This document shows positions 29,746 to 52,424 of a stretch of DNA of 64,000 bases, piece by piece. Numbering within the stretch: position 1 is the stretch's first letter; the number at the start of each line of letters is the position of its first letter. The notes below the pieces were generated by a model. The model searched no databases. It was not told where the DNA came from and saw nothing but the letters and a program-made list of their open reading frames with translations. Location of the stretch: contig CAYZNF010000006.1 of the NCBI GenBank assembly GCA_964479725.1, positions 5,518-69,517 of the forward strand, in the 5' to 3' direction. This DNA is from an uncultured Candidatus Saccharibacteria bacterium. GTDB taxonomy: Bacteria; Patescibacteriota; Minisyncoccia; Minisyncoccales; UBA10102. A program made the position numbers and the translations under genes.

Positions 29746-30124
29746 TTGAGAGGGGCGTCGCAAGCGTTCGTAGCGAGAGTTCTATTCGTGGTCGGCAGTG
29801 CGAGGAGGCTCATAGGTGTTGCAAAGGAGGAGTTCCAGGAGCGCAAGGCCGAACTCGAGCACGAGATCGCGGCGGCGCGCATCTCCCTGAACGAGTGCCG
29901 GATCGACGAGCTCGACGTGGCGGGGCTGCTGGCGTACGCCGCGGCGTTCATGCGGGACCTCCCCCGGCAGTGGTTTGACCTACCCCCCGAGCGGCGGACG
30001 AGGTTCCAACGCCTCGTGTTTCCCGAGGGAATCCCGTACGACCGGGAGGGCGGATTTGGAACCTGCCGTTTGGGGCTTCTGTACGAGCTGAACCGCCGGT
30101 TTGCGGCCGGCGGATCACGCGGGG
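29746..30124 (+). pseudogene. C-terminal remnant of a large serine recombinase-type integrase, ending at tRNA-Arg
   Basis: Coiled-coil-like EEFQERKAELEHEIAAARISLNE, then DLPPERRTRFQRLVFPEGIPYDREGGFGTCRLGLLYELN, reminiscent of recombinase C-terminal tails. There is no catalytic N-terminal domain, and the ORF runs into the tRNA. Confidence 0.4.
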
Positions 30125-30197
30125 TGTGCCCGAGAGGATTTGAACCTCTGGCCTCTTCCTTCGCAGGGAAGCGCTCTATCCACTGAGCTACGGGCAC
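30125..30197 (-). tRNA. tRNA-Arg (anticodon GCG)
   Basis: Reverse complement GTGCCCGTAGCTCAGTGGATAGAGCGCTTCCCTGCGAAGGAAGAGGCCAGAGGTTCAAATCCTCTCGGGCACA; anticodon arm CTTCC-CTGCGAA-GGAAG. Confidence 0.85.
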
Positions 30198-30310
30198 AAT
30201 TAGCCAAAGCAAAAGCTTGGCGTACGCATTGTAGCTTATTTCCTCTAAAAAATAAAGGTTGATTTTTAGGAGATTTAGGGTACAATGAGGCTGGTTTGAC
30301 ATTAGCCCCT

Positions 30311-30397
30311 GGAGAGGTGGCTGAGCGGCTGAAAGCAGCACACTGCTAATGTGTTAAGGGAGCAATCCCTTCGAGGGTTCGAATCCCTCCCTCTCCG
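30311..30397 (+). tRNA. tRNA-Ser (anticodon GCU)
   Basis: Acceptor GGAGAGG/CCTCTCC, anticodon loop CTGCTAA, long variable arm AAGGGAGCAATCCCTT, T-arm GAGGG-TTCGAAT-CCCTC. Confidence 0.85.
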
Positions 30398-30463
30398 CCT
30401 TCGGTCGATGAAGCGACCTTCGGCGGACACAGTCCGCCAGAAGGTTGCGAAGGCGACCTTCGC
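30397..30463 (+). repeat. GC-rich triple-hairpin element, copy 1 (directly after tRNA-Ser GCU)
   Basis: gccttcggtcgatgaagcgaccttcggcggacacagtccgccagaaggttgcgaaggcgaccttcgc. Three stems are visible (cgaag/cttcg, ggcggac/gtccgcc, cgaag/cttcg). It matches 31259..31325 at 61 of 67 positions by direct count. Confidence 0.85.
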
Positions 30464-30509
30464 CCGCAATGTGCTATAAATAACTAAATAACAACTTAAT
30501 TTTTATTCG

Positions 30510-30902
30510 ATGAGCGAAGAAGCTGGGCAACGACCAAGAACGCTTACCAAAACCTATCATATTATTTTCGACGCGATCGGAGTAGATCAATCTTTACTGC
30601 AAAGTGAAGAATTTATCTTTAGTCTTTTGCTTGAAATCCCAAAAAAGATTGATATGAAGATTCTTTCAGGCCCTCATCTTGTTCGAGATTATGATACGGG
30701 GCACGAGGGGCTAAGCGGATTTGCCATTATTGATTTTTCTCATGTCTCAATCCATACCTTTGCTGATAGCCAAGAAGCATACATAGATATTTTTTCCTGC
30801 AGGCCTTTCGACGAAAAAGCCATTCGGAATTATCTTTTCGAGAAGCTAGGCGTTGCGCCAGAACAAGTGCAAACTCATGAAGTAAATTATAGGTGGGGAT
30901 AG
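30510..30902 (+). CDS. S-adenosylmethionine decarboxylase-family (pyruvoyl, SpeH/SpeD class 1-like) proenzyme
   Basis: FAIIDFSHVSIHTFADSQEAYIDIFSCRPFD corresponds to the (E)SH(I/L)SIHTWPE...D(I/V)F(T/S)C core of small bacterial/archaeal AdoMetDC. The residue before the processing Ser is Phe rather than Glu. Confidence 0.65.
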   Translation: MSEEAGQRPRTLTKTYHIIFDAIGVDQSLLQSEEFIFSLLLEIPKKIDMKILSGPHLVRDYDTGHEGLSGFAIIDFSHVSIHTFADSQEAYIDIFSCRPFDEKAIRNYLFEKLGVAPEQVQTHEVNYRWG

Positions 30903-30936
30903 GAAGAGGGGAGCGAAAAAAACAGGTTAGTAAAAC

Positions 30937-30972
30937 GGAGGGGTGTCCGAGCGGTTTAAGGAGACAGTCTTG
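30937..30972 (+). pseudogene. 5' half of a tRNA-Ser-like gene (with duplicated leader), no contiguous 3' half
   Basis: GGAGGGGTGTCCGAGCGGTTTAAGGAGACAGTCTTG parallels the first 36 nt of the intact tRNA-Ser at 31060. About 27 nt of the upstream leader are also similar (30910.. vs 31033..). Similarity ends inside the anticodon loop. Confidence 0.6.
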
Positions 30973-31059
30973 CTCCCTGTTTGTCCAAGAGCAGAGCGAT
31001 TGGCAACAAACAGCAGTCCGCCGCAATGGAGTGGAGGCGGAAAAACTGGTTAGTAAGGC

Positions 31060-31146
31060 GGAGAGGTGGCCGAGTGGTTGAAGGCGACAGTCTTGAAAAC
31101 TGTTATATCCGAAAGGATATCGTGGGTTCGAATCCCACCCTCTCCG
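31060..31146 (+). tRNA. tRNA-Ser (anticodon UGA)
   Basis: Acceptor GGAGAGG/CCTCTCC, anticodon arm ACAGT-CTTGAAA-ACTGT, long variable arm TATATCCGAAAGGATAT, T-arm GTGGG-TTCGAAT-CCCAC. Confidence 0.85.
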
Positions 31147-31230
31147 CCTTGCTAGTGAGTTCTCCGCCTTCTCCCTCGACTTCGCTCTGGATTCGGCGGA
31201 TTGCTCTCGGTTACAAAATCAAAGATTTTG

Positions 31231-31329: not shown

Positions 31330-31569
31330 ATGAGTTACACTGTTTACATTCTAAAATGTGCAGACGGAAAACCGTATACTGGCTGCACAGATAATCTGGA
31401 AGAAAGATTATATAGACACAACAGTGGTCATGTTCCGGCAACTGAAAATCGCCGACCCGTTAAACTTATCACGCATGTAGTTTTTATTGATAAATACAAA
31501 GCTTTTGAATTTGAGAAATACTTAAAGTCTGGTTCCGGTCGAGCCTTCTTGAATAAGCATTTAATCTAA
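31330..31569 (+). CDS. Small GIY-YIG nuclease-superfamily protein (UPF0213-like, 79 aa)
   Basis: YTVYILKCADGKPYTGCTDNLEERLYRHNSG...FEKYLKSGSGRAFL, i.e. GIY/YIG-type N-terminus, conserved R..H and E motifs. Confidence 0.75.
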   Translation: MSYTVYILKCADGKPYTGCTDNLEERLYRHNSGHVPATENRRPVKLITHVVFIDKYKAFEFEKYLKSGSGRAFLNKHLI

Positions 31570-32528: not shown

Positions 32529-33311
32529 ATGCTTGCTAAATTTATTCAAGAACAACGCAAAAAGCGCAACCTAACGCAAGAATTTTTGGCGTCCGCGCTT
32601 AAAATTTCTCGCCCGACTTATATGCAAATTGAGCAGGGTGAGCGAGATTTAACTATTACCGAAGCCAAGAAATTGGCGGAAGTTTTTGATATTCCATTTG
32701 AAAATTTTTTGGAGGGAAAAGAAGACATGAAAATCGTTGTAAAGATTGAGGGTAAAAAGAAACAAAAACAAGAAGCCGAGGGCGAAATTCGCATCAGTAT
32801 CCCGCAAGAGAAAGCGGAAAAGTTTGAGCAGACGCTTTTGTATATCCTCGCAAAAATCGGCGGCAAGCCGAACATCGGGCAAACCGTGCTCTATAAGTTA
32901 TTGTATTTTATTGATTTTGATTATTACGAAAAATTTGAGGAACAACTGATTGGCGCAAAATACATTAAAAATCATTATGGCCCCACCCCAGTGATGTTTG
33001 CCAAGTTTATTGAACGTCTGGAAAAAAAGGGTAGGGTTGAGAAGATAAAAAGTAAGTTTTACAAGCACGAGCAGACCAAGTACCTCGTCAATCCGAACGA
33101 GGCGCTTAACTTATCTGCGCTTTCGGCGCAGGAGCTTGCTCATATTGATTGGGAAATTGACCGTCTTGGCGATTTAACCGCCACGCAGATTTCCGCGTTA
33201 TCTCATCTTGATACGCCATGGATTATAGCAAAAGACAGAGAGCCGCTGGAATACGAGCATGTATTCTATCGACCAGAAGAAACCTCTGTAAGAGAATATG
33301 AACCGCTTTGA
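32529..33311 (+). CDS. Antitoxin: XRE-family HTH fused to a Panacea (DUF4065/SocA-like) domain
   Basis: HTH: IQEQRKKRNLTQEFLASALKISRPTYMQIEQGERDLTITEAKKLAEVF. Panacea-like: GGKPNIGQTVLYKLLYFIDFDYYEKFEEQLIGAKYIKNHYGPTP. Confidence 0.75.
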   Translation: MLAKFIQEQRKKRNLTQEFLASALKISRPTYMQIEQGERDLTITEAKKLAEVFDIPFENFLEGKEDMKIVVKIEGKKKQKQEAEGEIRISIPQEKAEKFEQTLLYILAKIGGKPNIGQTVLYKLLYFIDFDYYEKFEEQLIGAKYIKNHYGPTPVMFAKFIERLEKKGRVEKIKSKFYKHEQTKYLVNPNEALNLSALSAQELAHIDWEIDRLGDLTATQISALSHLDTPWIIAKDREPLEYEHVFYRPEETSVREYEPL

Positions 33312-33654
33312 TGCTCTCGCAGAATTTGAAAAAGAATTCAAGCGACTTTCTAAAAAATATAAAACACTAGATGATGACTTTGAAAAGTTTAAGAAACTTT
33401 TACTTGTCGCCCCAACTGGCGTTGGGAAAAATTTTGTCATCATCCATTCAACTGAAACTATCAATATAGTGAAAGCGCGTATGGCGTGTCGCGCTCTCCG
33501 TGATCGTTCTTTGCGGATTATTTACGCATACCACGTCGCCGCTTCAAAAGTTGAATTTATTGAGATATACTTCAAAGGCGAAAAAGAGAACGAAGATCGA
33601 GAGCGAATCAAGGAGTATTTGAAAAATCAAAACCCCGCCCGCCACCCAATTTGA
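33298..33654 (+). CDS. Toxin candidate, RelE/ParE-superfamily-like
   Basis: 14-nt overlap with the antitoxin. KARMACRALRDRSLRIIYAYHVAASKVEFIEIYFKGEKENEDRERI fits the RelE/ParE-like ...R(I/V)IY......i.f+.iy.K... pattern. Confidence 0.55.
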   Translation: MNRFDALAEFEKEFKRLSKKYKTLDDDFEKFKKLLLVAPTGVGKNFVIIHSTETINIVKARMACRALRDRSLRIIYAYHVAASKVEFIEIYFKGEKENEDRERIKEYLKNQNPARHPI

Positions 33655-33657
33655 GGT

Positions 33658-33739
33658 CCCGCCGACCTGCCCGCCGAAGTTAGAACGCAGGCGGGGCCCA
33701 GCCAGTTCCGTTCGGATATTTTCAGACAGACACCGCCAA
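33658..33739 (+). repeat. 82-bp perfect direct repeat, right copy
   Basis: Identical to 32257..32338. It starts 4 nt after the toxin stop codon. Confidence 0.95.
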
Positions 33740-33765
33740 GTTTTACATTCTGCAATTTTGACTTA

Positions 33766-33794
33766 TTGACATCTTGGGACGGGAGAATTACAAT
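33766..33794 (+). promoter_or_regulatory. Consensus sigma70-type promoter upstream of the hydrogenase-like operon
   Basis: TTGACA-17 nt-TACAAT (ttgacatcttgggacgggagaattacaat), 52 nt upstream of ATG 33846. Confidence 0.6.
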
Positions 33795-33845
33795 AGTGGC
33801 GGATAATGTGCGGTTTGTGTAAGGAAATTTGCGCCATAGGCGCGT

Positions 33846-34400
33846 ATGTTTCAACTTTTAAAGAAAATAGCCACTACCCCAAAAACTGTAATTCCAAGAA
33901 GTTCTTTTGCTGTTTCCCCTAATGGCGAGCTCGATAAGCTTGGGGGACAGCTTCAAACGGCCGTAAACAAATGGTTTAAGGGTTCCCTGGCAATTAGGGA
34001 AGTGGACGCGGGGTCTACCAACGCCTGTGAGCAGGAATTGGTGGCCCTATCAAACTCTTTTTATGATATAGAGCGGTTTGGCATACACTTTGTGGCTTCT
34101 CCCAGGCACGCTGATATATTGTTTGTTACTGGGCCTGTTTCGCGCAATATGGCATATGCCCTGCGCAGCGCTTACGAAGCGACTCCCACTCCGAAAATAG
34201 TGGTGGCGGTAGGGGATGATGCCATTTCCGGAGGAATTTTTAAAGGTTCTTATGCCGTTTTAGACGGTGTTGCAAGCGTGATTCCTGTTGATTTTGAAAT
34301 TTCGGGAGATCCTCCATCGCCCGCAGATGTTCTGCGCGCGCTTGTTTCTATAGTTGAAAAAATCGGCGAAGAAAAGAGTCGTGTCAAAAAACACTCTTGA
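33846..34400 (+). CDS. NuoB/HycG/MbhJ-like small subunit with 3 of 4 Fe-S cysteine ligands substituted (Ehr-type)
   Basis: IREVDAGSTNACEQEL...ERFGIHFVASPRHADILFVTGPVSRNM...VAVGDDAISGGIF...VIPVDFEISGDPPSP aligns with the recalled HycG sequence VDCGGCNGCEIE...GACGNSGG...IPGCPPTP. Ligand positions read T, C, D, D. Confidence 0.8.
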   Translation: MFQLLKKIATTPKTVIPRSSFAVSPNGELDKLGGQLQTAVNKWFKGSLAIREVDAGSTNACEQELVALSNSFYDIERFGIHFVASPRHADILFVTGPVSRNMAYALRSAYEATPTPKIVVAVGDDAISGGIFKGSYAVLDGVASVIPVDFEISGDPPSPADVLRALVSIVEKIGEEKSRVKKHS

Positions 34401-34406
34401 TTATAT

Positions 34407-36464
34407 ATGATAGAGTCTGCCATATTGCAGTACGGTTTTTATCTTGCCATAAGTCTTTTTGCCCTAGGCGCTTTGGGAGCGCTTATTTTTGGGCGTTTTG
34501 GAGAGGGGAAAATAGCAAATTGGGTTACTCACGGACTGGCGGCGGCGGGAGCTTCTATAGGCCTGATATTCGGAGTCGTGGTCCTTCTTTCCCGTGAAAC
34601 GCTTTCTATCACTCTGCCGGTGTCTTTGTCATTCTTGTCGTCATTCATTAATCTGCGCGTGGATGCTTTATCGGCCTTCTTTATTATTACGATTTCTTTG
34701 ATTTCTTTGGTTGCTTCTTTGTATGGTTTGGGGTATCAACGCCAATTCTACGGCAAATATAACCTGGGGATTTTCGGATTCTTTTACGGTTTGTTTTTAG
34801 CGAGCCTTTTGTGCGTGGTTACTTTCAATAACGGTTTCTACTTTATGATTGCGTGGGAAGTGATGGCTCTGGCGTCCTATTGCCTGGTTATTTTTGAGCA
34901 TCGGCAAGAAAAAAACGTCCGAGCCGGTTTCCTGTATTTTGTAATGTCGCAAGCCGGAACAGCGTTTATTTTGATTGCTTTTTTGCTTTTGTATCGCTGG
35001 ACAGGTTCTTTTAGTTTTGATGTTTGGCGCCAGGAATTCGCAAGTTTATCTGTATTGTCGCAAAACATTGTGTTGTCTGTGGCCCTTGTGGGTTTTGGCA
35101 TGAAAGCAGGTATTATTCCTCTGCATGTTTGGCTTCCCGAAGCACATCCCGCGGCTCCCTCGCATGTTTCCGCATTAATGTCGGGGGTCATGATCAAAAC
35201 AGCTATTTTTATGCTTATCCGTTTCTTTTTTGATTTTTCGGGAAATGTTTCGGTGTCATGGGGCCTTATAATCCTTGTGTTAGGATCAATTTCCGCGCTT
35301 TTGGGCGTTTTGTACGCCCTAGCCGAGCATGACTTAAAGCGGTTGCTGGCGTACCATAGCGTAGAAAATATTGGCATTATTTTACTTGGGTTGGGCAGCG
35401 CGATCGTGTTCGCGGGAATGGGCTTTATGTCGCTTGCTTTTTTGGGTATGGCCGCCGCGTTATACCATACGTTAAACCACGCCGTGTTTAAGGCCCTGCT
35501 GTTTCTTGGAGCCGGGTCTGTCATTTCTCAAACTCACACCCATTCTATTGAAGAATACGGAGGTTTGTTGCGGCGCATGCCATACACCGGATTCTTCTTT
35601 CTTGTGGGGGCTGTTGCCATATCCGCTTTGCCGCCTTTGAATGGGTTTGCCAGCGAATGGATGACTTTTCAAGCGCTTTTTGCGGGCCTTGGGGAGGGTG
35701 AACTGATGATAAAGAGCGCTTTCATTTTTGCTATTGTATCGCTTGCGTTGGCGGGCGGTTTGGCGGCTGCTTGCTTTGTGAAGGCATTTGGAGCTACATT
35801 TCTGGCTAAGCCTCGCAGCGAGGCGAGCGGCAAAGCAAAAGAATCTTCAGCTCCGCTTTTGATTGCTATGGGTATTCTAGCCGCCGTGTCATTGGTTTTA
35901 GGTCTTGGCGCGGGCATGGTAGTTCCTTTACTGACTCAAGTGGCGCAAAGCATTAAGCTGGGTTCGGTATCTATGCATGCTCCCGCAGTTTTGGCTAGCG
36001 ACGTACAGGTTGGAGAGGGTTTTGCCGCGCTTTCTATGCCGGCGGTCGCTGTTGGCATTGTTGCCTTGGCTGGCGCGGTATTTTTGGCAATAAAGTTATT
36101 CACAAGCAAGCGCAAGGAGGAAGTGCGCCAGACCTGGGATTGCGGAGCTGTCCGCACGCCTCGCATGGAAATCACCGCCACAAGTTTTTCTCGATCGCTT
36201 ATCGCAATTTTTCGCGGCATTTTAAAGCCCACGAAACAGACGGATATTCATTATCAGGATGCCGCGAGCAGGTATTTTACAAAGTCAAAAAAGGTGATTA
36301 TCGAACTGCCCAACGTATACGGCAAATATATGTATGATCCCATAGGTGATGTTTTGGTAAGAATTTCTGAATGGACAAAAAAAGTGCAGGGAGGCAATGT
36401 TAACATCTATTTGCTTTATATTTTTGTAACATTGATAGGATTGCTTATATTCGCTACATTCTAG
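34407..36464 (+). CDS. NuoL/HyfB/MbhH-like antiporter-type membrane subunit
   Basis: 685 aa, polytopic. Proton-antiporter-family motifs WEVMALASYCLV, GIIPLHVWLPEAHPAAPSHVSALMSGVMIK, LAYHSVENIG. Confidence 0.8.
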   Translation: MIESAILQYGFYLAISLFALGALGALIFGRFGEGKIANWVTHGLAAAGASIGLIFGVVVLLSRETLSITLPVSLSFLSSFINLRVDALSAFFIITISLISLVASLYGLGYQRQFYGKYNLGIFGFFYGLFLASLLCVVTFNNGFYFMIAWEVMALASYCLVIFEHRQEKNVRAGFLYFVMSQAGTAFILIAFLLLYRWTGSFSFDVWRQEFASLSVLSQNIVLSVALVGFGMKAGIIPLHVWLPEAHPAAPSHVSALMSGVMIKTAIFMLIRFFFDFSGNVSVSWGLIILVLGSISALLGVLYALAEHDLKRLLAYHSVENIGIILLGLGSAIVFAGMGFMSLAFLGMAAALYHTLNHAVFKALLFLGAGSVISQTHTHSIEEYGGLLRRMPYTGFFFLVGAVAISALPPLNGFASEWMTFQALFAGLGEGELMIKSAFIFAIVSLALAGGLAAACFVKAFGATFLAKPRSEASGKAKESSAPLLIAMGILAAVSLVLGLGAGMVVPLLTQVAQSIKLGSVSMHAPAVLASDVQVGEGFAALSMPAVAVGIVALAGAVFLAIKLFTSKRKEEVRQTWDCGAVRTPRMEITATSFSRSLIAIFRGILKPTKQTDIHYQDAASRYFTKSKKVIIELPNVYGKYMYDPIGDVLVRISEWTKKVQGGNVNIYLLYIFVTLIGLLIFATF

Positions 36465-36475
36465 GTGCATTCACT

Positions 36476-37408
36476 ATGACTGCTATAACTTTTTCCATTA
36501 TCCAGGCGTTGCTTCTTTCGGCGCTTTCTCCGTTGCTGATTGGAGTCATACGCAAAATCAAGGCAAGAATGCAAAATAGGGTGGGAGCCAGCGTGTTTCA
36601 GCCGTATCGCGATATCATTAAGCTGCTGCACAAAGACGAAATAATTTCGGAGGAAGCTTCGTGGATTTTTCGTTTTGCCCCTTATTTGATTTTTACCAGT
36701 ACCTTGCTTGTTAGCATGGGAATTCCCATTTTGACGACCTTAACCGTTTTTGCTCCTGCCGCGGATTTTCTGGTGTTCATATATGTCATAGCTTTGGGGA
36801 CTTTTTTCCTTGCACTTGCCGGCATGGACACAGGAAGCTCTTTTGGCGGGTTTGGCTCAAGCCGTGAAATGACCGTAGCGGCTTTGGCGGAAGCCGGATT
36901 ATTGTTTTCCTTGCTTTCGGTTGCTTTGATCGCGCATTCGACTAATTTTGGCCAAATAGTCGCGAATATTCAGTTGCTGCCTCTGGTCAGTCTGGTACCC
37001 GTTTTTATAGCTTTCGTAGCATTCTTGATTGCTCTGGTTGCCGAGACCAGCAGAATGCCCATAGATAATCCGTCCACGCATTTGGAGCTTACGATGATCC
37101 ACGAAGCAATGATATTGGAGTATTCGGGCAAGCGCCTGGCGCTCATAGAATGGGCAGCTTCGAACAAACTCTTGATTTTTGTCGCGCTTGCCGCCAATCT
37201 GTTTTTCCCATGGGGGATAGCGCAGGATTTCTCTCTTCAGGCCCTTATGCTGGCTTTTGCTATTTTCGCGGTTAAAGTTTTCCTGATCGGAGGCGGAATA
37301 GCCTTTGTCGAGTCGGTCATTGCCAAACTTCGTTTCTTTCGTATTCCGGACTTGCTGCTGACTTCCCTGGTCCTGGGAATCATTGCCATAGGAATAATCA
37401 TGATGTAA
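36476..37408 (+). CDS. NuoH/HyfC/HycD-like membrane subunit
   Basis: 310 aa. RKIKARMQNRVGASVFQPYRDIIKLL N-terminus and ETSRMPIDNPSTHLELTMIHEAMILEYSG are typical of NuoH/HycD. Confidence 0.8.
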   Translation: MTAITFSIIQALLLSALSPLLIGVIRKIKARMQNRVGASVFQPYRDIIKLLHKDEIISEEASWIFRFAPYLIFTSTLLVSMGIPILTTLTVFAPAADFLVFIYVIALGTFFLALAGMDTGSSFGGFGSSREMTVAALAEAGLLFSLLSVALIAHSTNFGQIVANIQLLPLVSLVPVFIAFVAFLIALVAETSRMPIDNPSTHLELTMIHEAMILEYSGKRLALIEWAASNKLLIFVALAANLFFPWGIAQDFSLQALMLAFAIFAVKVFLIGGGIAFVESVIAKLRFFRIPDLLLTSLVLGIIAIGIIMM

Positions 37409-37411
37409 ATT

Positions 37412-38074
37412 ATGTCTATTTTTTTGTCGCCAATCTTTTTGAGCATTCCGATCATCGCGTTTCTTTCGGTAATTTTTATGAATTTAGCGCGCAGAAACGA
37501 AGTGCTGATCAATCTTTATATTCTGCAGTCTTTAGCCGTATTTTTGGGCTTGCTAAAAATGGCATTCCAGCACGCGGAAATAAGCCTTATCCTTGTTGCG
37601 GCTTTGACTATTGTCGTGAAAGGAGTTGCCGCGCCTATGTTTTTTTATCATCTTGTGAAGAAACAGAAAGTGCAAAGCAGCGCTACCGCGTATTTGAGCA
37701 CGCCCCTTACGCTTTTGGTGCTTATGGGCTTGACCGTCTTTGCGTATTCAAAACAGTTTGATTCCGTTGCTTTTCTGGCGGGGAACGGTTTAGGAGCTTA
37801 TCTGCCTCTTGTTTTCAGCAGTATTCTGATTTCATTGGTGCTGATTATCAACCGAAAAGGGGCATTTTCGCAGATTATCGGCATACTTTCATTGGAAAAC
37901 AGCATAGTTCTGCTAGCCTCTTTTATAGGGCTGCAGTACCCAATTTCTTTGGAGCTCGGCATTCTGTTCGATATAGCCGTGTGGGTCGTTGTTGCCACGG
38001 TGTTTATCGCGCTTTTGCATAAGCATTTTGGGTCGCTTAATGTTACCGACATGAAACGGCTTAAGGAAGAGTAA
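37412..38074 (+). CDS. HyfE/NuoK-like small membrane subunit
   Basis: 220 aa, about 7 hydrophobic helices, positioned as in hyf operons. GILSLENSIVLLA resembles HyfE. Confidence 0.6.
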   Translation: MSIFLSPIFLSIPIIAFLSVIFMNLARRNEVLINLYILQSLAVFLGLLKMAFQHAEISLILVAALTIVVKGVAAPMFFYHLVKKQKVQSSATAYLSTPLTLLVLMGLTVFAYSKQFDSVAFLAGNGLGAYLPLVFSSILISLVLIINRKGAFSQIIGILSLENSIVLLASFIGLQYPISLELGILFDIAVWVVVATVFIALLHKHFGSLNVTDMKRLKEE

Positions 38075-38078
38075 TAGT

Positions 38079-39530
38079 ATGCTTATTCTTCTTATTTTTT
38101 TTATTCCATTAGCTGCCGCTTTTCTGTCGCTTTTAGCGCCGCGCGGCAAGAAGAATTGGCTGGAGATAGGCTCTTTGCTCGCTTCTTTGGGAGAGATGGG
38201 AGTAGTGTTTATTATAGCCAAAGAGGTTTTGATATCGGGCAATTATCCTGTTTTTTCCATTTTTGAGATAGACGCTTTAAGTTTGCTTTTTATCGCGCTG
38301 ATCAGTTTGGTAGGATTTGTGGCGGTGATGTATTCTATAGGGTATTTGAGGGAAGAGGTGAAAAAAGAAATTATCGGATTTCGCAGGGTAAGGCAGTATT
38401 TTGTCCTGCTGCATCTTTTTATTTTCGCGATGCTTGTTGCCGTATGCGCGCACCATCCTATCGTCATGTGGCTTGCCATTGAAGCTACCACCCTTTCAAC
38501 GGCATTCTTGATAAGTTTTTACGGCAAGCCTTCTACCATTGAAGCCGCGTGGAAATATTTAATCTTGAATTCCGTGGGTTTGCTGCTTGGTTTTCTCGGC
38601 ACGCTTATTTTTTTGGTTTCCGCTAATGAAGCGGGAGGCGAACATGTATTTTTAGACTGGCAGGCATTGCGCGACGCGGCTCCTTTTATTTCTTCTCTTG
38701 CGGCAAAGGTGGGTTTTGTGTTCGTATTGATTGGATACGGCACAAAAGTCGGACTAGCCCCAATGCATACCTGGAAGCCCGACGCATACGACAAAGCTCC
38801 CGTTCCAATTGCGGCGCTCTTGTCGGGAGTATTGCTGAACGTGGCATTTCTCTCGATTCTGCGCTTTAAAGCAGTGGTGGACGATGTTTTGGGATCCTCA
38901 TTTTCCAGCCTTCTCCTTATCTTTTTTGGCATTGTCTCAATTTGCGTGGCGATGCTGCTTATTTTTGGGCAGAAGAATTATAAGCGTCTTCTGGCATATT
39001 CCAGTATTGAGCATGCGGGAATCATGGCTATAGGATTCGGAATTGGCGGGGCGGCGGCATTTTTTGCTCTTTTGCACATGTTATATCACGCGCTTTCAAA
39101 GTCATTGCTATTTTTTGCCGCAGGCAATATATTCCTTAAATACAGTTCGGCGAATATTGCCAAGATCAAAGGAGCCCATAGCGTTTTGCCCATTACGAGT
39201 CTGGTGTTTATAGGAGGAGCCTTGGGGCTTCTTGGCCTGCCTCCTTTTGGAATATTTTTGACAAAATTTGGAATATTGGCAAGCGCTATTGAAGAGTATC
39301 CCATAGTTGCTGTTTTTCTGGTTTTCGCGCTTGCCTTGATATTTATCGGATTTTTGCGGCATATTTCAGAGATGTTTTTCGGTGTATCGCCAGAAGGCAC
39401 GCAAAAAGGGGAAGCGAATCTTTGGACGCTTGTGCCTTTGCTGTGTTTGGCGGCGTTATTTATTCTGTTAAGTTTATTCATGCCTTCAATGCTCAAAACA
39501 ATGCTACTTGACGGAGCCGTCTTGATTTAA
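38079..39530 (+). CDS. NuoN/NuoM/HyfF-like antiporter-type membrane subunit
   Basis: 483 aa. WLAIEATTLSTAFLI, GLAPMHTWKPDAYDKAPVPIAALLSGVLLN and LLAYSSIEHAG motifs. Confidence 0.8.
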   Translation: MLILLIFFIPLAAAFLSLLAPRGKKNWLEIGSLLASLGEMGVVFIIAKEVLISGNYPVFSIFEIDALSLLFIALISLVGFVAVMYSIGYLREEVKKEIIGFRRVRQYFVLLHLFIFAMLVAVCAHHPIVMWLAIEATTLSTAFLISFYGKPSTIEAAWKYLILNSVGLLLGFLGTLIFLVSANEAGGEHVFLDWQALRDAAPFISSLAAKVGFVFVLIGYGTKVGLAPMHTWKPDAYDKAPVPIAALLSGVLLNVAFLSILRFKAVVDDVLGSSFSSLLLIFFGIVSICVAMLLIFGQKNYKRLLAYSSIEHAGIMAIGFGIGGAAAFFALLHMLYHALSKSLLFFAAGNIFLKYSSANIAKIKGAHSVLPITSLVFIGGALGLLGLPPFGIFLTKFGILASAIEEYPIVAVFLVFALALIFIGFLRHISEMFFGVSPEGTQKGEANLWTLVPLLCLAALFILLSLFMPSMLKTMLLDGAVLI

Positions 39531-39549
39531 TAAATCTTATATCATATCT

Positions 39550-41118
39550 ATGAATATCGAAGAAATCATTTCGGCATATATTCCTTCAAAAACAGCCATC
39601 CAAAAAGAGGGAAATATGATTTTGTTCCCTATTTTACCCAAGGATATCGAACGAGTATGCCTGTCTTTTTACAATCAATATCACTTGCCGCTAAAGACCG
39701 CAGCGGCAACAGACGACAGAAAGAAAGATGGTTTTTTTCGAGTTTTCTATGTATTTGGCGTGCCGGGAAGCCAGTTGTTTGTAGCTCCTTTTATTGCCCT
39801 GAAGGAAGGGGAGTCTTTTCCTTCTCTTGCGACCAAAATCCATCAGCTTTCCTGGTATGAAAGGGAGATAAAGACATTTTTTGGCATAAACCCGGAAGGG
39901 CATCCCGATCCCAGGCCGATTATTTTGCACGAAAATTGGCCCGGCAATGTTTACCCTTTGCGTAAGGATTTTGATTGGCAGTATCGTCCGCCCAAGGCGC
40001 GCGCTTCTTATCCGTTTCAACGGGTGGAAGGTGAGGGTGTGTATGAAATTCCGGTGGGGCCGGTGCACGCCGGTATTATAGAGCCTGGCCATTTTCGTTT
40101 TAGCGTGGTGGGAGAAGAAATCGTTTCTCTCGAAGCTCGTTTGGGCTATACGCATAAGGGCATAGAAAAACTTTTTGAAGTATTGCCCTTTGAAAAGAAA
40201 GTAATGCTTTCGGAAAGGGTTTCGGGCGACAGTTCTTTCTCCCATTCCTTGGCGTATTGCCAGGCAGTGGAAAAGCTCGGCGATGCGGAGGTTCCCAAAA
40301 AAGCTCTTTATTTGAGGGTTATATATGCTGAACTTGAAAGAATCGCCAATCACTTAGGCGATATCGGAGCTATTATGATGGATACTGCTTTTGCGTTTGG
40401 CGGAAGCAACGGGGCCAGATTGCGGGAAATAGTCATGCAATGGAACGAAAAGCTTACCGGAAGCCGTTTTTTGCGCGGAGTGAATACGGTGGGCGGAGTA
40501 ACGAAAGATATTCCGTCTGAAATCAAGCAGGATTTCAAAGCCAGCCTAGCCGCCCTGGAAAAAGATTTTAAAGAAGTTATTGAAATAGCTGAAGGCACCG
40601 CTACCTTGATGAACAGGTTGCATGGAACCGGTTCCATAGATCGCACCGTTGCTTTGGATCATGGGATATTGGGGGTAGCTGGAAAAGCAGTGGGTATAGC
40701 GCAGGATACTCGCATAGACTTTCCTTACGCCGCCTATAAAGAAATGCCCCTTCGCATGGCTTTAGAGTCAAGCGGGGATGTGTATGCCCGTTTTAAGGTT
40801 CGAATAAGCGAAGTTTTGAATTCTATCGAAATCATACGGCATGCTTTGCGCACCATGCCAAACGGGGATATTTGCACGCTTTCGTTGCCTCGGCTAAAAA
40901 AGCAAAGCTTTGCTTTCAGCCTTGTAGAGGGATGGAGGGGGGATATTGCGTACTTTGTAGCCACGGATGAACAGGGAACGATAACGCGATGTAAGGTGCG
41001 CGATACGTCATTTTTGAATTGGGCTATTATGGGATACGCCGTAACTAATGATGTGGTTCCCGATTTTCCTTTGATCAACAAAAGTTTCAACCTGTCGTAT
41101 TCCGGAAACGATTTATAG
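39550..41118 (+). CDS. NuoC+NuoD / HycE/HyfG-like large subunit lacking all four NiFe cysteine ligands (Ehr-type)
   Basis: NuoC-like N-terminus (SWYEREIKTFFGINPEGHPDPRPIILHENWP..YPLRKDF). GPVHAGIIEPGHFRFSVVGEEIVSLEARLGYTHKGIEKLFE is present. The L1 position reads SERVSGDSSFSHS (expected RxCGxCxxxH). The C-terminus reads FNLSYSGNDL* (expected DPCxxCxxR). Confidence 0.85.
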   Translation: MNIEEIISAYIPSKTAIQKEGNMILFPILPKDIERVCLSFYNQYHLPLKTAAATDDRKKDGFFRVFYVFGVPGSQLFVAPFIALKEGESFPSLATKIHQLSWYEREIKTFFGINPEGHPDPRPIILHENWPGNVYPLRKDFDWQYRPPKARASYPFQRVEGEGVYEIPVGPVHAGIIEPGHFRFSVVGEEIVSLEARLGYTHKGIEKLFEVLPFEKKVMLSERVSGDSSFSHSLAYCQAVEKLGDAEVPKKALYLRVIYAELERIANHLGDIGAIMMDTAFAFGGSNGARLREIVMQWNEKLTGSRFLRGVNTVGGVTKDIPSEIKQDFKASLAALEKDFKEVIEIAEGTATLMNRLHGTGSIDRTVALDHGILGVAGKAVGIAQDTRIDFPYAAYKEMPLRMALESSGDVYARFKVRISEVLNSIEIIRHALRTMPNGDICTLSLPRLKKQSFAFSLVEGWRGDIAYFVATDEQGTITRCKVRDTSFLNWAIMGYAVTNDVVPDFPLINKSFNLSYSGNDL

Positions 41119-41129
41119 GCCGATTTACC

Positions 41130-41882
41130 CTAGCCTCGCGCCGCGACAATTCCAAAAATCCTAAAAGCTCCAGCCTTCTTGAGAACTTTTGCGCATTCGC
41201 GGAGCGTACTGCCGGTTGTATATACATCATCCACAAGCAGGATGTTTTTGTTTTTTACCGAAGAGGGAGAAATTACCCGGAAAGCATCTTTTACATTTGT
41301 CTTGCGTTCTTTTTCCGATAGTTCAGCTTGAGCGAGAGTTGCTTTTGTTTTTACGAGCAGATTTGCCGCAAGGGGTATGGCAAGGCCCAAAGAAAGCTCT
41401 TTTGCCAAGAGTTCCGCGTGGTTAAATCCGCGCCAGCGCAATCTTTTTTTGTGCAATGGGACCGGAACGAGGAGATATTCTGATGTTTTGATTGTATTTG
41501 TTTTTGCGGCAGAGAATATCGGCAGTATTGGTTTGTCCGCAAGCATGAGATGGGATATAATAAGAAAAGCCAAAGAAGAAGAAAGATCTTTGATGAAGGG
41601 TTCGTACTTGTATTTCTTGATTGTCCGCTGTATTAGGGACTCTGTGTAAGAAGCGGCGTAAAATAATCCCGACAGATCGTGATTGCTGCCGAAAAATTGG
41701 GGAATTCGATTGATGGGAATAAGAGCCAAACAGTCGTTGCAGAAAAATGTCGATTCTTTTTGGCATGAAATGCAATGTTTCGGGAAAAAGAGATCGGCAA
41801 GAGCTGTTAATACTGTAAATTTCATTAAGCCATTGTAATCCCTTTGTGGTATAATAGACAATGATTTTTCAGTCGTTTCCAT
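41130..41882 (-). CDS. comFC: ComF-family protein (ComFC, phosphoribosyltransferase-like competence protein)
   Basis: N-terminal Zn-finger-like CISCQKESTFFCNDC and PRTase motif ILLVDDVYTTGSTLRECAKVL. The start is probably the internal Met at 41825, since the longer model overlaps pilM. Confidence 0.75.
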   Translation of the reverse strand: METTEKSLSIIPQRDYNGLMKFTVLTALADLFFPKHCISCQKESTFFCNDCLALIPINRIPQFFGSNHDLSGLFYAASYTESLIQRTIKKYKYEPFIKDLSSSLAFLIISHLMLADKPILPIFSAAKTNTIKTSEYLLVPVPLHKKRLRWRGFNHAELLAKELSLGLAIPLAANLLVKTKATLAQAELSEKERKTNVKDAFRVISPSSVKNKNILLVDDVYTTGSTLRECAKVLKKAGAFRIFGIVAARG

Positions 41883-42922
41883 TGTTTCCGAAGAGTTATC
41901 TTGGTATTGATATTGGCACCTCTGCGATTAAGCTGGTGGAGCTTTCCGGCTGGACAGAGCGCCGCACCCTTAAAAATTATGGAGAGATAAAAAGCGAAAG
42001 CCTGTATCAAGAGCCTTTTCGCACGTTTGAAAAAAACACTTTATCCCTTTCCAGCGAAGAAATCGCCAAAGCCATTAGGGCAGTCATGGAAGAATCAAAG
42101 ATACATGTCAAGAAAGCCATTTTTTCGATTCCCGACTTTTCCACATTTTTTACTAATTTTGAAATGCCTCCCATGGACAGCAGGGAGCTGGCGGAGGCGG
42201 TGCGTTTTGAGGCAAGGAGGCATGTCCCTGTACCTCTTTCTGAAGTGTCGTATGGCTGGCAAATCATAGAAGGACCCCAAAAAAAGCTTGATCCGTTTAA
42301 GATTCTCATGGTTGCAGTACCCAACGAGTCCATTAACCAATATCAGGAAATCGCGAAGATGGCGGGGGTGGAATTGGCCGGTCTTGAGGCGGAAGTGTTT
42401 GGGATTATCCGTTCATGTTTGCAGAAAGGGGACAGGGGAGTAACTATGCTCTTGGATATTGGCGCGCAAACGACTACAATTAGTGTAGTGGAAAAGGGCA
42501 TGCTCCGTTCTTCAAACAGTGTGGATATAGCGGGCAAGCAGTTTTCGGAGCGTATTGCCTCATCGGGGCGCGTTGATTTTAAGACAGCAGAGGACATGAA
42601 AATAAAGGATGGGCTTTTATTGAAGGTGGGAACTTCCGAAGTTTTGCTTCCCCAAATGGACGCGCTTTTGCAGGAGATGCATAGAATAGCGCAGTCGCAC
42701 AAGACAGACAGCGGCAAAGACGTTGAAAAAGTTGTTGTAGCGGGGGGATCGGCACTGCTTAAGGGAATTAAGGAGTTTTTTGAAAAAGACTTTGTGAAAA
42801 ATGTTTCAATAGCCAGTCCATTCCAGCATGTGTTTTATCCGCCGCTTTTGGAGGAAACCTTAAAAAAATCAGGCCCTGCGTACGCGGTGGCAGTCGGCAT
42901 GGCTCTTCGGGGATTTGAATAA
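41861..42922 (+). CDS. pilM: Type IV pilus assembly protein PilM (actin-like ATPase fold)
   Basis: YLGIDIGTSAIKLVEL, LLDIGAQTTTISVV and VVVAGGSALLKGI are actin/FtsA-like phosphate motifs. It is first in the pil cluster. Confidence 0.8.
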   Translation: MIFQSFPLFPKSYLGIDIGTSAIKLVELSGWTERRTLKNYGEIKSESLYQEPFRTFEKNTLSLSSEEIAKAIRAVMEESKIHVKKAIFSIPDFSTFFTNFEMPPMDSRELAEAVRFEARRHVPVPLSEVSYGWQIIEGPQKKLDPFKILMVAVPNESINQYQEIAKMAGVELAGLEAEVFGIIRSCLQKGDRGVTMLLDIGAQTTTISVVEKGMLRSSNSVDIAGKQFSERIASSGRVDFKTAEDMKIKDGLLLKVGTSEVLLPQMDALLQEMHRIAQSHKTDSGKDVEKVVVAGGSALLKGIKEFFEKDFVKNVSIASPFQHVFYPPLLEETLKKSGPAYAVAVGMALRGFE

Positions 42923-42927
42923 TTACT

Positions 42928-43470
42928 ATGCCAATACAAATTCTTCCAAAAAACACCCAAAAGGGGGTTGAAGCATACCATAGAACGGAAAATATTATCG
43001 TGGCAATAGCTTTAATTGCCCTGCTTTCTGTGGCCGGCGCTTATTCTCTTTTGAGATTCGTTTTCGAAAATGAGCAGGAGAAAAAAAATGCTGACTGGCG
43101 CCAAGAGTTTGCGGAGGCCGGAGGAGCTGAACAGCGCCAAATGGAAGAAACCCTGGTGCAATACCAGGGCAAAATAAATGCGGTGCAGGCTCTTTTGGCG
43201 GGACAAAAAACCCCCATTCCCATGTTCGAATTCCTTGAGAAATATACCTTGCGGGGGGTTGCTTTTTCTTCAGCCAACATTTCGGTCGCAGAGGGGAAGA
43301 TGGATTTGGTTGGCACTGCCCCGAATTTCGCGATTTTACATCAGCAAATCCTTGTCATGCAGGGCAAAAGCGAGCTACGGGGAGCGGTATTTTCCGGGTT
43401 CAAAAAAGACGAAGACGGGAGGGCGGCATTTAGTTTATCGTTGCAATTTATACCCACACCAATAAAATGA
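42928..43470 (+). CDS. PilN-like bitopic pilus alignment protein
   Basis: Single N-terminal TM (IIVAIALIALLSVAGAYSLL). Size and position after pilM fit PilN. No strong motif. Confidence 0.45.
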   Translation: MPIQILPKNTQKGVEAYHRTENIIVAIALIALLSVAGAYSLLRFVFENEQEKKNADWRQEFAEAGGAEQRQMEETLVQYQGKINAVQALLAGQKTPIPMFEFLEKYTLRGVAFSSANISVAEGKMDLVGTAPNFAILHQQILVMQGKSELRGAVFSGFKKDEDGRAAFSLSLQFIPTPIK

Positions 43471-44027
43471 GCCTTCGCATTATCATTGCCACAATTTTAT
43501 TAGGATTTTCCATGCTTGGGATTGTTTTCTTGGTAATGCCAGAGTACCGGGAATATATTTCTTTGCGCACCGTGGGGAAGGGATTGCGGGAAAACATCGC
43601 CAATAAACAGGAATATTTTAAAGATTTACAGGCGGCAAACGAAGAACTCCAAAGATACCAGAGGCAGCTTTCGTTGATTGACTACGCTGTCCCGAGCAAT
43701 TCCCAGATACCTTTTACCTATCATATGTTCTCGAATATGGCGGATGCAAGGGGCGTAAGGGTTGACGATGTTGCCATTGGCGGCGGAGAAGCAGGAAAAG
43801 ACATAGCTTTTGCCACTGATTCTGCCAGCCAAACGCGTCCGACCGGCGTAACTCTTCAAATCAGGGGGTCGTACGAGAACATAAAAGACTACTTGGAATT
43901 TTTGAATAAGGTTGCCAGGATTATCCATATAGAGTCGGTCAACCTGGAGCCAGATGCCATTCCTGACGCTGAAGAACCCCCAGGAATTTATAGGGCGTCA
44001 ATAAACCTCAAAGTATTTTCTTATTGA
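43467..44027 (+). CDS. PilO-like bitopic pilus alignment protein
   Basis: N-terminal TM, coiled-coil segment (KQEYFKDLQAANEELQRYQRQL) and C-terminal alpha/beta region. 4-nt overlap with the upstream gene. Confidence 0.5.
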   Translation: MSLRIIIATILLGFSMLGIVFLVMPEYREYISLRTVGKGLRENIANKQEYFKDLQAANEELQRYQRQLSLIDYAVPSNSQIPFTYHMFSNMADARGVRVDDVAIGGGEAGKDIAFATDSASQTRPTGVTLQIRGSYENIKDYLEFLNKVARIIHIESVNLEPDAIPDAEEPPGIYRASINLKVFSY

Positions 44028-44034
44028 TATTGAT

Positions 44035-44301
44035 ATGGCAAATATAGAAGCACAGCGGAAAAAAATCCAGCAGTACCTGCCCGCAGTATTCATCCTGCTT
44101 GTTTTCGTAGCTATTGCTTTCCTGCTTTCCAGCAAAGAAAAGCAAGCGGAATTGCAGGTTATCTTGCCTTCTTTCTCATTTCCCAAGGTTGTGATCGATT
44201 TTAAAACGCTCGAAGCGATGAATGGCTTTGTTATTCCAGCCGATCCTATTGCCGCTCCCCAGCCAGGGGAGTATGGCAAGGACAATCCTTTTGCTCCGTA
44301 A
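44035..44301 (+). CDS. Small bitopic protein in the PilP position
   Basis: 88 aa, one TM (LPAVFILLVFVAIAFLL), ends GEYGKDNPFAP. Confidence 0.35.
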   Translation: MANIEAQRKKIQQYLPAVFILLVFVAIAFLLSSKEKQAELQVILPSFSFPKVVIDFKTLEAMNGFVIPADPIAAPQPGEYGKDNPFAP

Positions 44302-44307
44302 ATTTTC

Positions 44308-46032: not shown

Positions 46033-46039
46033 TAAACAC

Positions 46040-46408: not shown

Positions 46409-46415
46409 AATTCCT

Positions 46416-47495: not shown

Positions 47496-47499
47496 ACCC

Positions 47500-48714: not shown

Positions 48715-48849
48715 TGGGAAAAAAGTTTTCCACATTGTGAAGTTTGCGCTTTGCATTTATAATAAGTTGCAATGGCTGCTCAACAATGAGCGGCATTAAC
48801 CATAAAGGTCAACTATTAGTAAAAGGTCAAAAAAATTATAGCAATAAAT

Positions 48850-49395: not shown

Positions 49396-49463
49396 TGCAG
49401 GAAACGATATAATGCAGAAAAGAAGCGCGAAAGCGCTTCTTTTCTTTTAAAAGGTATGGTTTT

Positions 49464-50438: not shown

Positions 50439-50505
50439 CCAAAAACCTCTTCCTAATTTATACGTACGGATAAATAAGAAAGAGGTTTAAACGGATAAAG
50501 GGTGG

Positions 50506-51078: not shown

Positions 51079-51191
51079 AGTAACTTGTTACATGAGTTAT
51101 TTGATAAGCTTAAAAGCACTTCCTTAATTATACGTACGTATAATTAAGGAAGTAAATTGTAGATAAAAAGGGGAGGGGGTATAATAAGCAA

Positions 51192-52402: not shown

Positions 52403-52424
52403 TAAATATTTTAGCATTATTGCG

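Follow-up and report, generated by a model that had tools for sequence, protein, structure and literature searches.

Complexes of the energy-converting-hydrogenase-related family (Ehr) are relatives of complex I, an example reportedly being ehrABCDLS of Geobacter sulfurreducens (GSU0739-45), a system said to have been named by Coppi and surveyed by Marreiros et al. in 2013. How complex I and the related hydrogenases couple chemistry in the peripheral arm to long-range proton pumping is still debated. Bacteria of the candidate phyla radiation (CPR, or Patescibacteria) lack a respiratory chain, which raises the question of how membrane potential and ion balance are upheld in them. Here we analyse a six-gene Ehr operon at positions 33846-41118 of a 64-kb stretch of DNA from an uncultured Candidatus Saccharibacteria bacterium (contig CAYZNF010000006.1); the whole stretch is called the window below, and coordinates refer to it unless another locus is named. 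The assignment of the operon to the Ehr family, and within it to a derived subclade that has the small-subunit gene first (S-first) and lacks both the NiFe site and the [4Fe-4S] ligands, is well supported. As read from its ligand columns, the six-subunit complex of this subclade is one with no recognisable redox cofactor.

Published accounts describe Ehr complexes as lacking NiFe ligands and as having an unknown function (PMC6349859, PMC10284858, PMC12342949). Jaffe et al. 2020 (BMC Biol 18:69, PMC7304191) reported monophyletic CPR Ehr large subunits without NiFe-binding cysteines, which 'likely cannot interact with H2'; for Ehr, that study examined the large subunit alone. The clade of the window is most likely the CPR Ehr clade of that work, from which the loss of small-subunit ligands, their replacement by carboxylates, the change of gene order, the non-CPR members and the linkage to ATP synthase are absent. 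Loss of the NiFe cysteines is therefore not special to the present locus, being common to all 88 Ehr large subunits compared and already published for the CPR (PMC7304191). What is distinctive is the loss of the cluster ligands in the small subunit, which is confined to the derived S-first subclade.

A six-gene Ehr operon of the small-subunit-first type

Six co-directional open reading frames (ORFs) on the plus strand fill positions 33846-41118, with intergenic gaps of 6, 11, 3, 4 and 19 nucleotides (nt). Pfam and NCBIfam profiles identify them, in order, as HycG/NuoB-, HyfB-, HyfC/NuoH-, HyfE-, HyfF- and NuoC+HyfG-like. A preliminary description of this DNA had listed six co-directional genes with gaps of 3-19 nt in the same subunit order, and the ORFs and profiles bear this out. 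The operon comprises the following features.

33766..33794, plus strand: promoter-like site TTGACA-17-TACAAT, matching a sigma-70-type consensus at 11 of 12 positions (a consensus match only), 52 nt 5′ of the first ATG
33846..34400, plus strand: small subunit, EhrS-like (NuoB/HycG family), 184 amino acids (aa), a single Cys; PF01058, 6e-25
34407..36464, plus strand: antiporter-like subunit 1, EhrA (HyfB/NuoL-like), 685 aa; PF00361; NCBIfam 'hydrogenase 4 subunit B' at 681 bits, above the curated cutoff
36476..37408, plus strand: NuoH/HyfC/HycD-like subunit EhrB, 310 aa; PF00146; HycD (7z0s_D) at 4e-48
37412..38074, plus strand: HyfE-like small membrane subunit EhrC, 220 aa; NCBIfam HyfE at 5e-12, weak but specific; weak PF00420 (NuoK) over residues 131-218
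38079..39530, plus strand: antiporter-like subunit 2, EhrD (HyfF/NuoN-like), 483 aa; PF00361; NCBIfam HyfF at 6e-122
39550..41118, plus strand: fused NuoC and large subunit EhrL (HyfG/HycE-like), 522 aa; PF00329 and PF00346; HycE (7z0s_E) at 6e-76

The promoter-like site is the top sigma-70-type match within 33300-41500, a scan that detected no comparable site between the six genes. One strong promoter-like site ahead of the first gene is consistent with a single transcription unit. The best solved relatives of the small subunit are HycG (7z0s_G, 2e-27) and MbhJ (6cfw_J); EhrA matches HycC (7z0s_C) at 1e-74, and no solved relative of EhrC was detected by sequence. The six proteins together have 2404 residues, of which 12 are cysteines, and contain no Fe-S motif.

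Of the 509 relatives detected in 185,579 species-representative genomes, 80 loci were kept. These show two architectures: a classical A-B-C-D-L-S order, seen in Geobacteraceae, Thaumarchaeota, Methanoperedens, Acidobacteria, Nitrospirota, Omnitrophota, Margulisbacteria and others, and the small-subunit-first order S-A-B-C-D-L, found in the window, in 11 related loci with a contig extending as far as the first gene, and in L081, a second assembly of the organism of the window. Further loci of the subclade were cut off or redundant for gene order (L003, L005 and L083, the last a duplicate of L082), and the other 73 loci are mostly A-B-C-D-L-S where the contig is complete. The Rv0082-Rv0087 cluster of M. 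tuberculosis may also have its small-subunit gene in front. In our trees, which are bootstrapped neighbour-joining trees only, rooted on HycE, HyfG and NuoCD, all Ehr large subunits are monophyletic against these references (100/100 bootstraps), which places the window inside the Ehr clade and apart from the three reference proteins. The S-first group is monophyletic for the large subunit (100/100), the small subunit (100/100) and the NuoH-like subunit (95/100), and it is nested inside a paraphyletic classical Ehr. Its monophyly and nesting indicate that the cluster-less state is derived and arose once. The subclade is not exclusive to the CPR: members occur in Scalindua and in metagenome-assembled genomes (MAGs) with the labels Fibrobacteria and Deltaproteobacteria, and one is on a contig on which genes of the Wood-Ljungdahl pathway also lie.

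Loss of the NiFe site in the large subunit

Ligand columns were read from an alignment in which the window proteins and about 80 relatives were set against the products of the annotated hyf, hyc and nuo operons of E. coli, and all eight canonical cofactor ligand columns were compared with E. coli HycE, HyfG, HycG, HyfI, NuoB and NuoCD. The alignment gives back the textbook ligand numbers, and the motif registration of the preliminary description is therefore correct: no NiFe cysteine, and one small-subunit cysteine, stands at these columns. The two former NiFe motifs of EhrL are as follows.

40216..40245, plus strand: former NiFe motif L1, RVSGDSSFSH, residues 223-232; S225 and S228 fall on HycE C241 and C244
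41089..41112, plus strand: former NiFe motif L2, NLSYSGND, residues 514-521; S516 and G519 fall on HycE C531 and C534

In the alignment RVSGDSSFSHS pairs with RVCGICGFAHS of HycE, and NLSYSGND with DPCYSCTD. The same four residues, S225, S228, S516 and G519, also fall on HyfG C243, C246, C517 and C520, so that the replacement of all four NiFe cysteines by S, S, S and G, proposed beforehand from the motifs, holds on both sets of columns. The quinone residues of complex I are gone as well, NuoCD Y273 corresponding to G226 and H224 to I177. EhrL stops one residue past the former L2 motif and has no C-terminal extension of the HycI-cleavable type, in contrast to E. coli HycE, whose 32-residue tail is removed by HycI. 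It keeps the hydrogenase-type GP.H....EPGHFR motif and the proton-relay Glu (E178, equivalent to HycE E193).

This signature extends across the family. Cysteine is absent from the NiFe columns in 88/88 Ehr large subunits of both gene orders, which read SSSG, SESG, AESG, SNSG, STSG or ATSG and never differ at S516 and G519; in each of the 120 closest large subunits the four columns read STSG, SSSG or SASG. In the group comparison of 85 Ehr large subunits, S516, Y517 and G519 are invariant and D521 is present in 84. Among the 120 closest homologues S225, G226, D227, H232, E178, K511, S516, Y517, G519 and D521 are invariant, and H181 (119/120) and C237 (118/120) nearly so. The same set has at least 95% conservation at every position of the C-terminal string PDFPLINKSFNLSYSG.D and at 32% of all EhrL positions. 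D227, K511, which sits just N-terminal of the former L2 motif, and C237 are Ehr-specific relative to HycE, HyfG and NuoCD.

Carboxylates at the former cluster site of the small subunit

The cluster motifs of the small subunit have changed in the following way.

34011..34031, plus strand: former cluster motif 1, GSTNACE, residues 56-62; T58 and C61 fall on NuoB C63 and C64
34209..34235, plus strand: former cluster motif 2, VGDDAISGG, residues 122-130; D125 falls on NuoB C129
34302..34316, plus strand: former cluster motif 3, SGDPP, residues 153-157; D155 falls on NuoB C158

T58, C61, D125 and D155 also fall on HycG C48, C51, C115 and C145; the loss of three of the four cysteines, to T, D and D, had been noted before and is upheld on the HycG and NuoB columns alike. 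Small subunits of the 73 classical loci read CCCC, whereas those of the S-first group read TCDD, DCDD or SETD. Position 46 is Gly in the S-first subclade only and Arg in HycG, HyfI, NuoB and classical Ehr.

All 120 closest small subunits retain either none or one of the four ligand cysteines (TCDD in 63, DCDD in 19, SEGD in 13, SEDD in 5, and others). As 33 of them have no Cys at any ligand column and 28 have none in the entire protein, it is unlikely that the Asp substitutions ligate a non-canonical cluster, an option that the preliminary description had entertained. Position 58 is T in 68 relatives, D in 30 and S in 21, and position 61 is C in 87, E in 26, A in 4 and V in 3. The carboxylates are conserved: E62 occurs in 120/120, D124 in 119/120, D125 in 100/120 and D155 in 116/120, with N in the other four. 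Each relative carries two or three carboxylates at the four ex-ligand columns and four to six at seven pocket columns. Position 125 is G mainly where position 61 is E, and the co-occurrence of C61E with D125G (Fisher p = 2e-12 over the 120 relatives, kinship not corrected for) suggests that charge is maintained in the pocket.

A change from Cys to Asp takes two nucleotide changes, and it seems to have happened more than once. A second Ehr-type operon of Candidatus Scalindua sp. P6-7 (L070, 12457-19759), more divergent, has the A-B-C-D-L-S order and an ATSG large subunit. Its 258-aa small subunit carries D, C, D and N at the cluster columns, at which the Geobacteraceae orthologues (L043, L057 and L076) read CCCC. 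On these sequences the replacement of Cys by Asp or Asn in L070 is apparently independent of the subclade, that is, convergent.

Conservation of the peripheral arm

Selection was assessed from relative conservation between subunits; the loci are about 50-66% identical at the protein level, and synonymous sites are saturated. Within the subclade, mean pairwise identity is 0.66 for the small subunit, 0.59 for the large, 0.61 for the NuoH-like, 0.55 and 0.51 for the antiporter-like and 0.46 for the HyfE-like subunit, which makes the small subunit the most conserved of the six and EhrC the least. The fixed differences between the subclade and classical Ehr are R46G, C125D and C155D in the small subunit; the large subunit has a single one in its 522 positions, a replacement of W by F at position 469, and the membrane subunits have two or three each. 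By this measure the operon is shown to be under strong purifying selection, the peripheral arm above all.

The substitutions are not artefacts, a possibility raised at the outset, since an independent assembly is the same at the motifs and 120/120 small and 120/120 large subunits agree. An NCBI protein from a Candidatus Wildermuthbacteria MAG matches the small subunit of the window at 100% identity. The independent assembly of the same organism, L081 (NCBI JACPIB010000052.1), is identical over the operon, all motif positions included, except for a 55-nt deletion corresponding to window 39826-39880 in the NuoC-like domain; the resulting frameshift gives a public gene call of 468 aa. The EhrL of the window is full length and collinear with its homologues over residues 1-522, and the 55-nt difference is due either to heterogeneity between strains or to a faulty assembly of the public contig. 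An exact-sequence look-up of the window large subunit returned no match because of this deletion and frameshift in the public assembly.

Retention of the ion-translocation residues

We found the relay residues of complex I throughout the membrane arm. In EhrA, E151, K233, K264, H354, H358, K362 and E417 correspond to NuoL E144 and K229, NuoM K265, NuoL H334, H338 and K342, and NuoM E407, and they are conserved in both Ehr groups; the Lys of transmembrane helix 7 (TM7), which is missing from E. coli HycC, is kept in EhrA. In EhrD, E135, K223, H337, K341 and K396 correspond to NuoL E144, K229, H338, K342 and K399, and the TM8 position is N254, the same as N263 of E. coli HyfF. Both antiporter-like subunits match MrpA or MrpD chains at 1e-23 to 1e-41. 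EhrC K70, R148 and E162 are conserved in both Ehr groups.

The coupling loop of EhrB reads E190..R193.P.D197NP.TH202LE204LTMIH209E210...E215Y216SG and is invariant over S-first and classical Ehr. EhrB retains the equivalents of NuoH E157, D213, E220, E228, Y229, K274 and R293, and has H202 in place of NuoH E218. With the relay and E-channel residues retained, the machinery for ion translocation appears intact, as far as residue conservation can indicate. The preliminary description had proposed that the operon encodes an Ehr-like module, probably inactive as a hydrogenase, that translocates ions and has two antiporter-like subunits, in a genome of CPR type; family assignment, phylogeny and these conserved pumping residues lend support to this proposal.

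Gene neighbourhoods of the S-first operons

Within the window, the CxxCxxCxxxC ferredoxin motif occurs in none of the ORFs of at least 40 aa, no nuo genes lie outside the operon, and none of the roughly 40 Pfam-annotated neighbours of the operon is a hyp, hycI, fdh, NuoI/HycF or ferredoxin gene. This agrees with the earlier observation that HycF/NuoI, formate dehydrogenase and hyp/hycI genes are missing beside the operon.

Fifteen S-first loci had usable flanks. Apart from ATP synthase, no flanking family recurs among them, and an all-against-all comparison of flanking ORFs revealed no hidden seventh subunit. An F1Fo ATP synthase adjoins the operon in 3/15 loci, in three different arrangements (P = 0.0004-0.009 for at least three of 15 in a simple model that gives each locus a 1-3% chance).

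L084, 2368-9937: atp operon directly upstream, same strand, at 63 nt
L088, 11676-19020: atp operon directly downstream, same strand, at 119 nt, on an 868-kb Patescibacteria contig
L086, 18370-20540: ATP synthase convergent, with one gene between

The neighbouring c-subunits appear to be of the H+ type (AFAEA[IV]AIY, with the helix-1 Gln absent), an observation that is neutral on Na+/H+ exchange.

Redox genes lie close to few of the operons. In L087 (4715-9288, Paceibacterota) the operon divergently adjoins a complete group 3b NiFe hydrogenase cluster (Fe-S, NAD-binding, small and large subunits, and HypA), and its flanks hold the glycolysis genes TIM, FBA, GAPDH and PGK; another S-first locus lies on the contig with Wood-Ljungdahl-pathway genes. 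Genes with a ferredoxin motif occur within 4 kb of 2/15 S-first and 2/62 classical operons. A contrast between the two groups in ferredoxin-type neighbours was considered and rejected, as there is no difference. The rarity of such neighbours in both groups indicates that the missing dedicated electron-input module is a trait of the family.

In L082 and L090, two-component or sigma-54 regulators lie beside the operon. A second set of antiporter-like and NuoH-like genes follows the S-first operon within a few kb in L085 (18402-20522) and L005 (10505-15709). Both loci are apparently non-CPR, L005 being labelled Fibrobacteria and a Fibrobacter-type protein domain being encoded in L085, where a PTS_EIIA/HTH regulator separates the operon from the second gene set.

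A possible redox-independent ion translocator

Because no canonical NiFe, proximal/N2 or quinone ligand set is present and the proton-relay residues are kept, we propose that this complex translocates ions and takes no part in electron transfer. Our tentative reading is that it may well be a redox-independent ion translocator that works on a proton gradient made by the ATPase and whose ex-cofactor cavities gate the E-channel. The membrane arm, built from the NuoH-like E-channel subunit, the HyfE-like subunit and the two antiporter-like subunits and having a complete Glu/Lys/His relay, would move protons and perhaps also a counter-cation. In a CPR cell that lives by fermentation and has no respiratory chain, the gradient would be made by the H+-type F1Fo ATPase, and the complex would use or reshape it, by Mrp-like cation/H+ exchange or by interconversion of ΔpH and Δψ, in the service of pH and ion homeostasis. 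The NuoB/NuoCD-like peripheral cap would not be vestigial: the cluster cavity would have become a conserved pocket of four to six carboxylates, and the NiFe cavity would now be lined by the invariant D227, K511 and Ser/Thr hydroxyls. Both pockets would most likely form a cytoplasmic cation- or proton-binding gate on the E-channel, replacing the electron-driven change of charge. The direction of transport and the ion, the role of the acidic pockets and the cooperation with the ATPase are all features that we infer.

Several points weigh against such a translocator. The recent literature calls the function of Ehr unknown (PMC12342949). Subunits of the MrpB, C, E, F and G types, which are linked to the Na+ path of Mrp and Mbh, are absent, leaving cation/H+ exchange without an identified cation site. 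An ATP synthase is not adjacent in the window or in 12/15 loci, the neighbour in L087 is a genuine group 3b NiFe hydrogenase, and the search for partner genes reached the 64-kb window of this genome only. The chief weakness is that a plain secondary transporter should not need a cap better conserved than its membrane arm; the conserved peripheral arm points to a further ligand, partner or reaction.

A broader proposal, which we regard as doubtful though arguable, concerns the Ehr family as a whole. The subclade amounts to a natural knock-out of the last redox centre with the rest nearly unchanged, and this leads us to suggest that the core job of Ehr complexes, cluster-bearing classical members included, is not electron transfer and that they may be a class, hitherto overlooked, of cofactor-independent ion machines of complex I architecture. 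If this is true, the peripheral arm would be a gate operated by cations or protons, and a CPR Ehr together with an F1Fo ATPase would form a minimal two-component chemiosmotic circuit.

Alternative explanations

Because a plain secondary transporter should not need so conserved a cap, two variants are kept as serious rivals. The first, which we consider unlikely, is that the complex is a pump or transporter driven by non-redox chemistry, in which the carboxylate pocket of the peripheral arm would hold a divalent metal or a substrate, and a binding event or a non-redox reaction would be coupled there to ion translocation. An analogy in principle is offered by CupA/NDH-1MS and DabAB, in which complex-I-type antiporter subunits are coupled to CO2 hydration. 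The peripheral subunits are indeed the best conserved, the ex-cofactor pockets are polar or charged (D227, K511, S225, S516 and Y517 in the large subunit; D124, D125, D155 and E62 in the small), compensatory changes keep the number of carboxylates steady, and Cys-to-Asp replacement arose convergently. However, Pfam and NCBIfam profiles reveal no known catalytic motif or extra domain, no accessory gene is conserved, carboxylate-only pockets are unlike carbonic-anhydrase-type sites, and we know of no precedent for such chemistry in NuoB or NuoD folds.

The second variant, which strikes us as quite improbable, is a non-transporting regulator or sensor without net ion flux: a sensor of pH or proton-motive force, or an accessory or assembly factor of ATP synthase. 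The ATP synthase neighbour in three arrangements, the replacement of cofactors by acidic, titratable pockets and the two-component or sigma-54 regulators beside the operon in L082 and L090 would fit such a role, but the full set of proton-relay residues is conserved across distant phyla, which is hard to explain without transport, and many operon contexts have neither ATPase nor regulators.

There is very little likelihood that the complex is still a redox enzyme, with a non-canonical metal centre ligated by Asp and Cys in the small subunit, or with an unlinked ferredoxin or dehydrogenase feeding a new site. Asp does ligate Fe-S clusters in some proteins, C61 is kept in 87/120 small subunits, C237 of the large subunit is Ehr-specific and nearly invariant, and in L087 the neighbour is a group 3b hydrogenase that has Fe-S and NAD-binding subunits. 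Against this stand the small subunits that are Cys-free at the ligand columns (33/120) or overall (28/120), the presence of never more than one thiolate, the lack of a NuoI/HycF-type relay subunit and of a ferredoxin motif in the 64-kb window, Fe-S genes within 4 kb in 2/15 loci only, and the disappearance of the quinone-binding Tyr and His.

The 55-nt deletion that frameshifts the large-subunit gene in one public assembly of the same organism could point to the decay of a former hydrogenase or complex I, or to an artefact of assembly or frameshift. Conservation effectively refutes both: the window copy is complete, with residues 1-522 collinear with its homologues, more than 100 homologues of many lineages share the substitutions, with invariant motifs and, inside the subclade, 46-66% mean pairwise identity, and the operon is intact and tightly spaced behind a strong promoter-like site.

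Novelty and implications

In the searchable literature, with the founding Ehr paper outside it, we found no description of a derived S-first subclade without [4Fe-4S] ligands, of a conserved and convergent carboxylate replacement in the Ehr small subunit, of the near-absence of correlated change elsewhere in the complex, or of a linkage between Ehr and ATP synthase. What appears to be new is the derived, monophyletic subclade with its S-first gene order, the carboxylate pocket (xCDD), the best-conserved small subunit next to intact antiporter and E-channel residues, the lack of an electron-input gene beside the operon, and ATP synthase as its one recurrent neighbour.

The subclade presents a widespread, strongly conserved relative of complex I in which every redox centre is gone and the peripheral arm and the residues for coupling and pumping are kept. 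One reading is that the complex I architecture can be driven or gated by means other than electrons, such as the binding of ions or protons in the ex-cofactor pockets; another is that the role of the peripheral arm is structural or one of gating and does not depend on catalysis. On either, the complex would be a simplified six-subunit system for studying the coupling mechanism. For the CPR, an ATPase-linked Ehr module is a concrete candidate for the upkeep of membrane potential and ion balance. In public sources these proteins (P0001, P0121, P0027 and others) go by 'NADH-quinone oxidoreductase subunit B/C' or 'Ni,Fe-hydrogenase III small/large subunit', labels that mislead metabolic reconstructions because the ligand columns rule out the activities that they imply.

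Other genes of the window

The genes around the operon are housekeeping genes, a type IV pilus cluster, an HTH/SocA-type antitoxin module and comFC. Directly 5′ of the operon (32529-33654) lies an antitoxin-like gene with HTH_3 and SocA/Panacea domains, overlapped by 14 nt by a 118-aa ORF that has no Pfam match and is probably the cognate toxin. Directly 3′, at 41861-59365, a type IV pilus cluster encodes a PilM-like protein, PilB and PilT ATPases, PilC, a prepilin peptidase and several N-methyl pilins, and two proteins near the start of the window (15-965 and 4515-5195) have T4SS_pilin domains; the pilus genes represent a surface apparatus typical of the CPR.

Between 26000 and 31600 the G+C content is raised (0.50-0.55, against about 0.45 elsewhere) and several ORFs have no Pfam match. 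This stretch holds a Barstar homologue (27073-27453), an AdoMet decarboxylase gene (30510-30902), a small GIY-YIG ORF (31330-31569) and a cluster of one tRNA-Arg and two tRNA-Ser genes (30122-31148), and may be the remnant of an integrated element. An Rfam search of the GC-rich 27-32.6 kb returned tRNAs only. Positions 12037-20542 encode a 1999-aa protein in which fibronectin-III and purple-acid-phosphatase-N-type domains are repeated and, after it, the two parts of a MacB-type ABC transporter (ATPase at 18040-19338, FtsX/MacB permease at 19343-20542).

Comparison with known systems

Classical Ehr is the closest match to the operon. Both have the same six subunit families, a composition identical to that of the 73 classical loci, and neither has a NuoI/HycF subunit; both have lost the four NiFe cysteines (the S/A-x-S-G signature) and share the invariant D227, K511 and C237 and the DNP.THLELTMIHE loop signature. 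The operon differs in that its small-subunit gene stands first rather than last, in that this subunit has xCDD in place of the CCCC of the 73 classical EhrS, and in the change from Arg to Gly at position 46.

The nearest solved or characterised homologues of every subunit are found in E. coli hydrogenase 4, the formate hydrogenlyase FHL-2 (hyfABCDEFGHI), and in FHL-1 (hyc; PDB 7Z0S). Unlike these, the operon has no NiFe ligands, no proximal cluster, none of the HyfA, HyfH, HycB and HycF ferredoxin-like subunits and no HyfD, and no formate dehydrogenase, hyp or hycI genes were found with it. Set against the definition of a group 4 [NiFe] hydrogenase, all Cys of L1 (RxCGxCxxxH) and L2 (DPCxxCxxR/H) are replaced, and a small subunit with a four-Cys proximal [4Fe-4S] site and a 2x[4Fe-4S] ferredoxin-like subunit are both lacking.

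With the Mrp antiporters (PDB 6Z16, 7D3U and 7QRU) the complex would share the character of a redox-free machine with MrpA/MrpD-type subunits and a relay of TM5 Glu, TM7 Lys, TM8 Lys and TM12 Lys/Glu. It has NuoH-, NuoB- and NuoCD-like subunits that Mrp lacks, and has no homologues of MrpB, C, E, F or G. The operon is thus outside the Mrp family, and the likeness would be one of function only.

Compared with complex I (NDH-1), the operon has six genes only, as opposed to a set of 11-14 subunits; the N2 cluster, the quinone Tyr and His and NuoEFG are missing, and NuoA, I, J, K and M are not separate subunits. Homologous NuoB, NuoCD, NuoH, NuoL and NuoN modules are nevertheless shared, the residues of the E-channel and the antiporter-like subunits are conserved, and an L-shaped architecture like that of complex I is implied.

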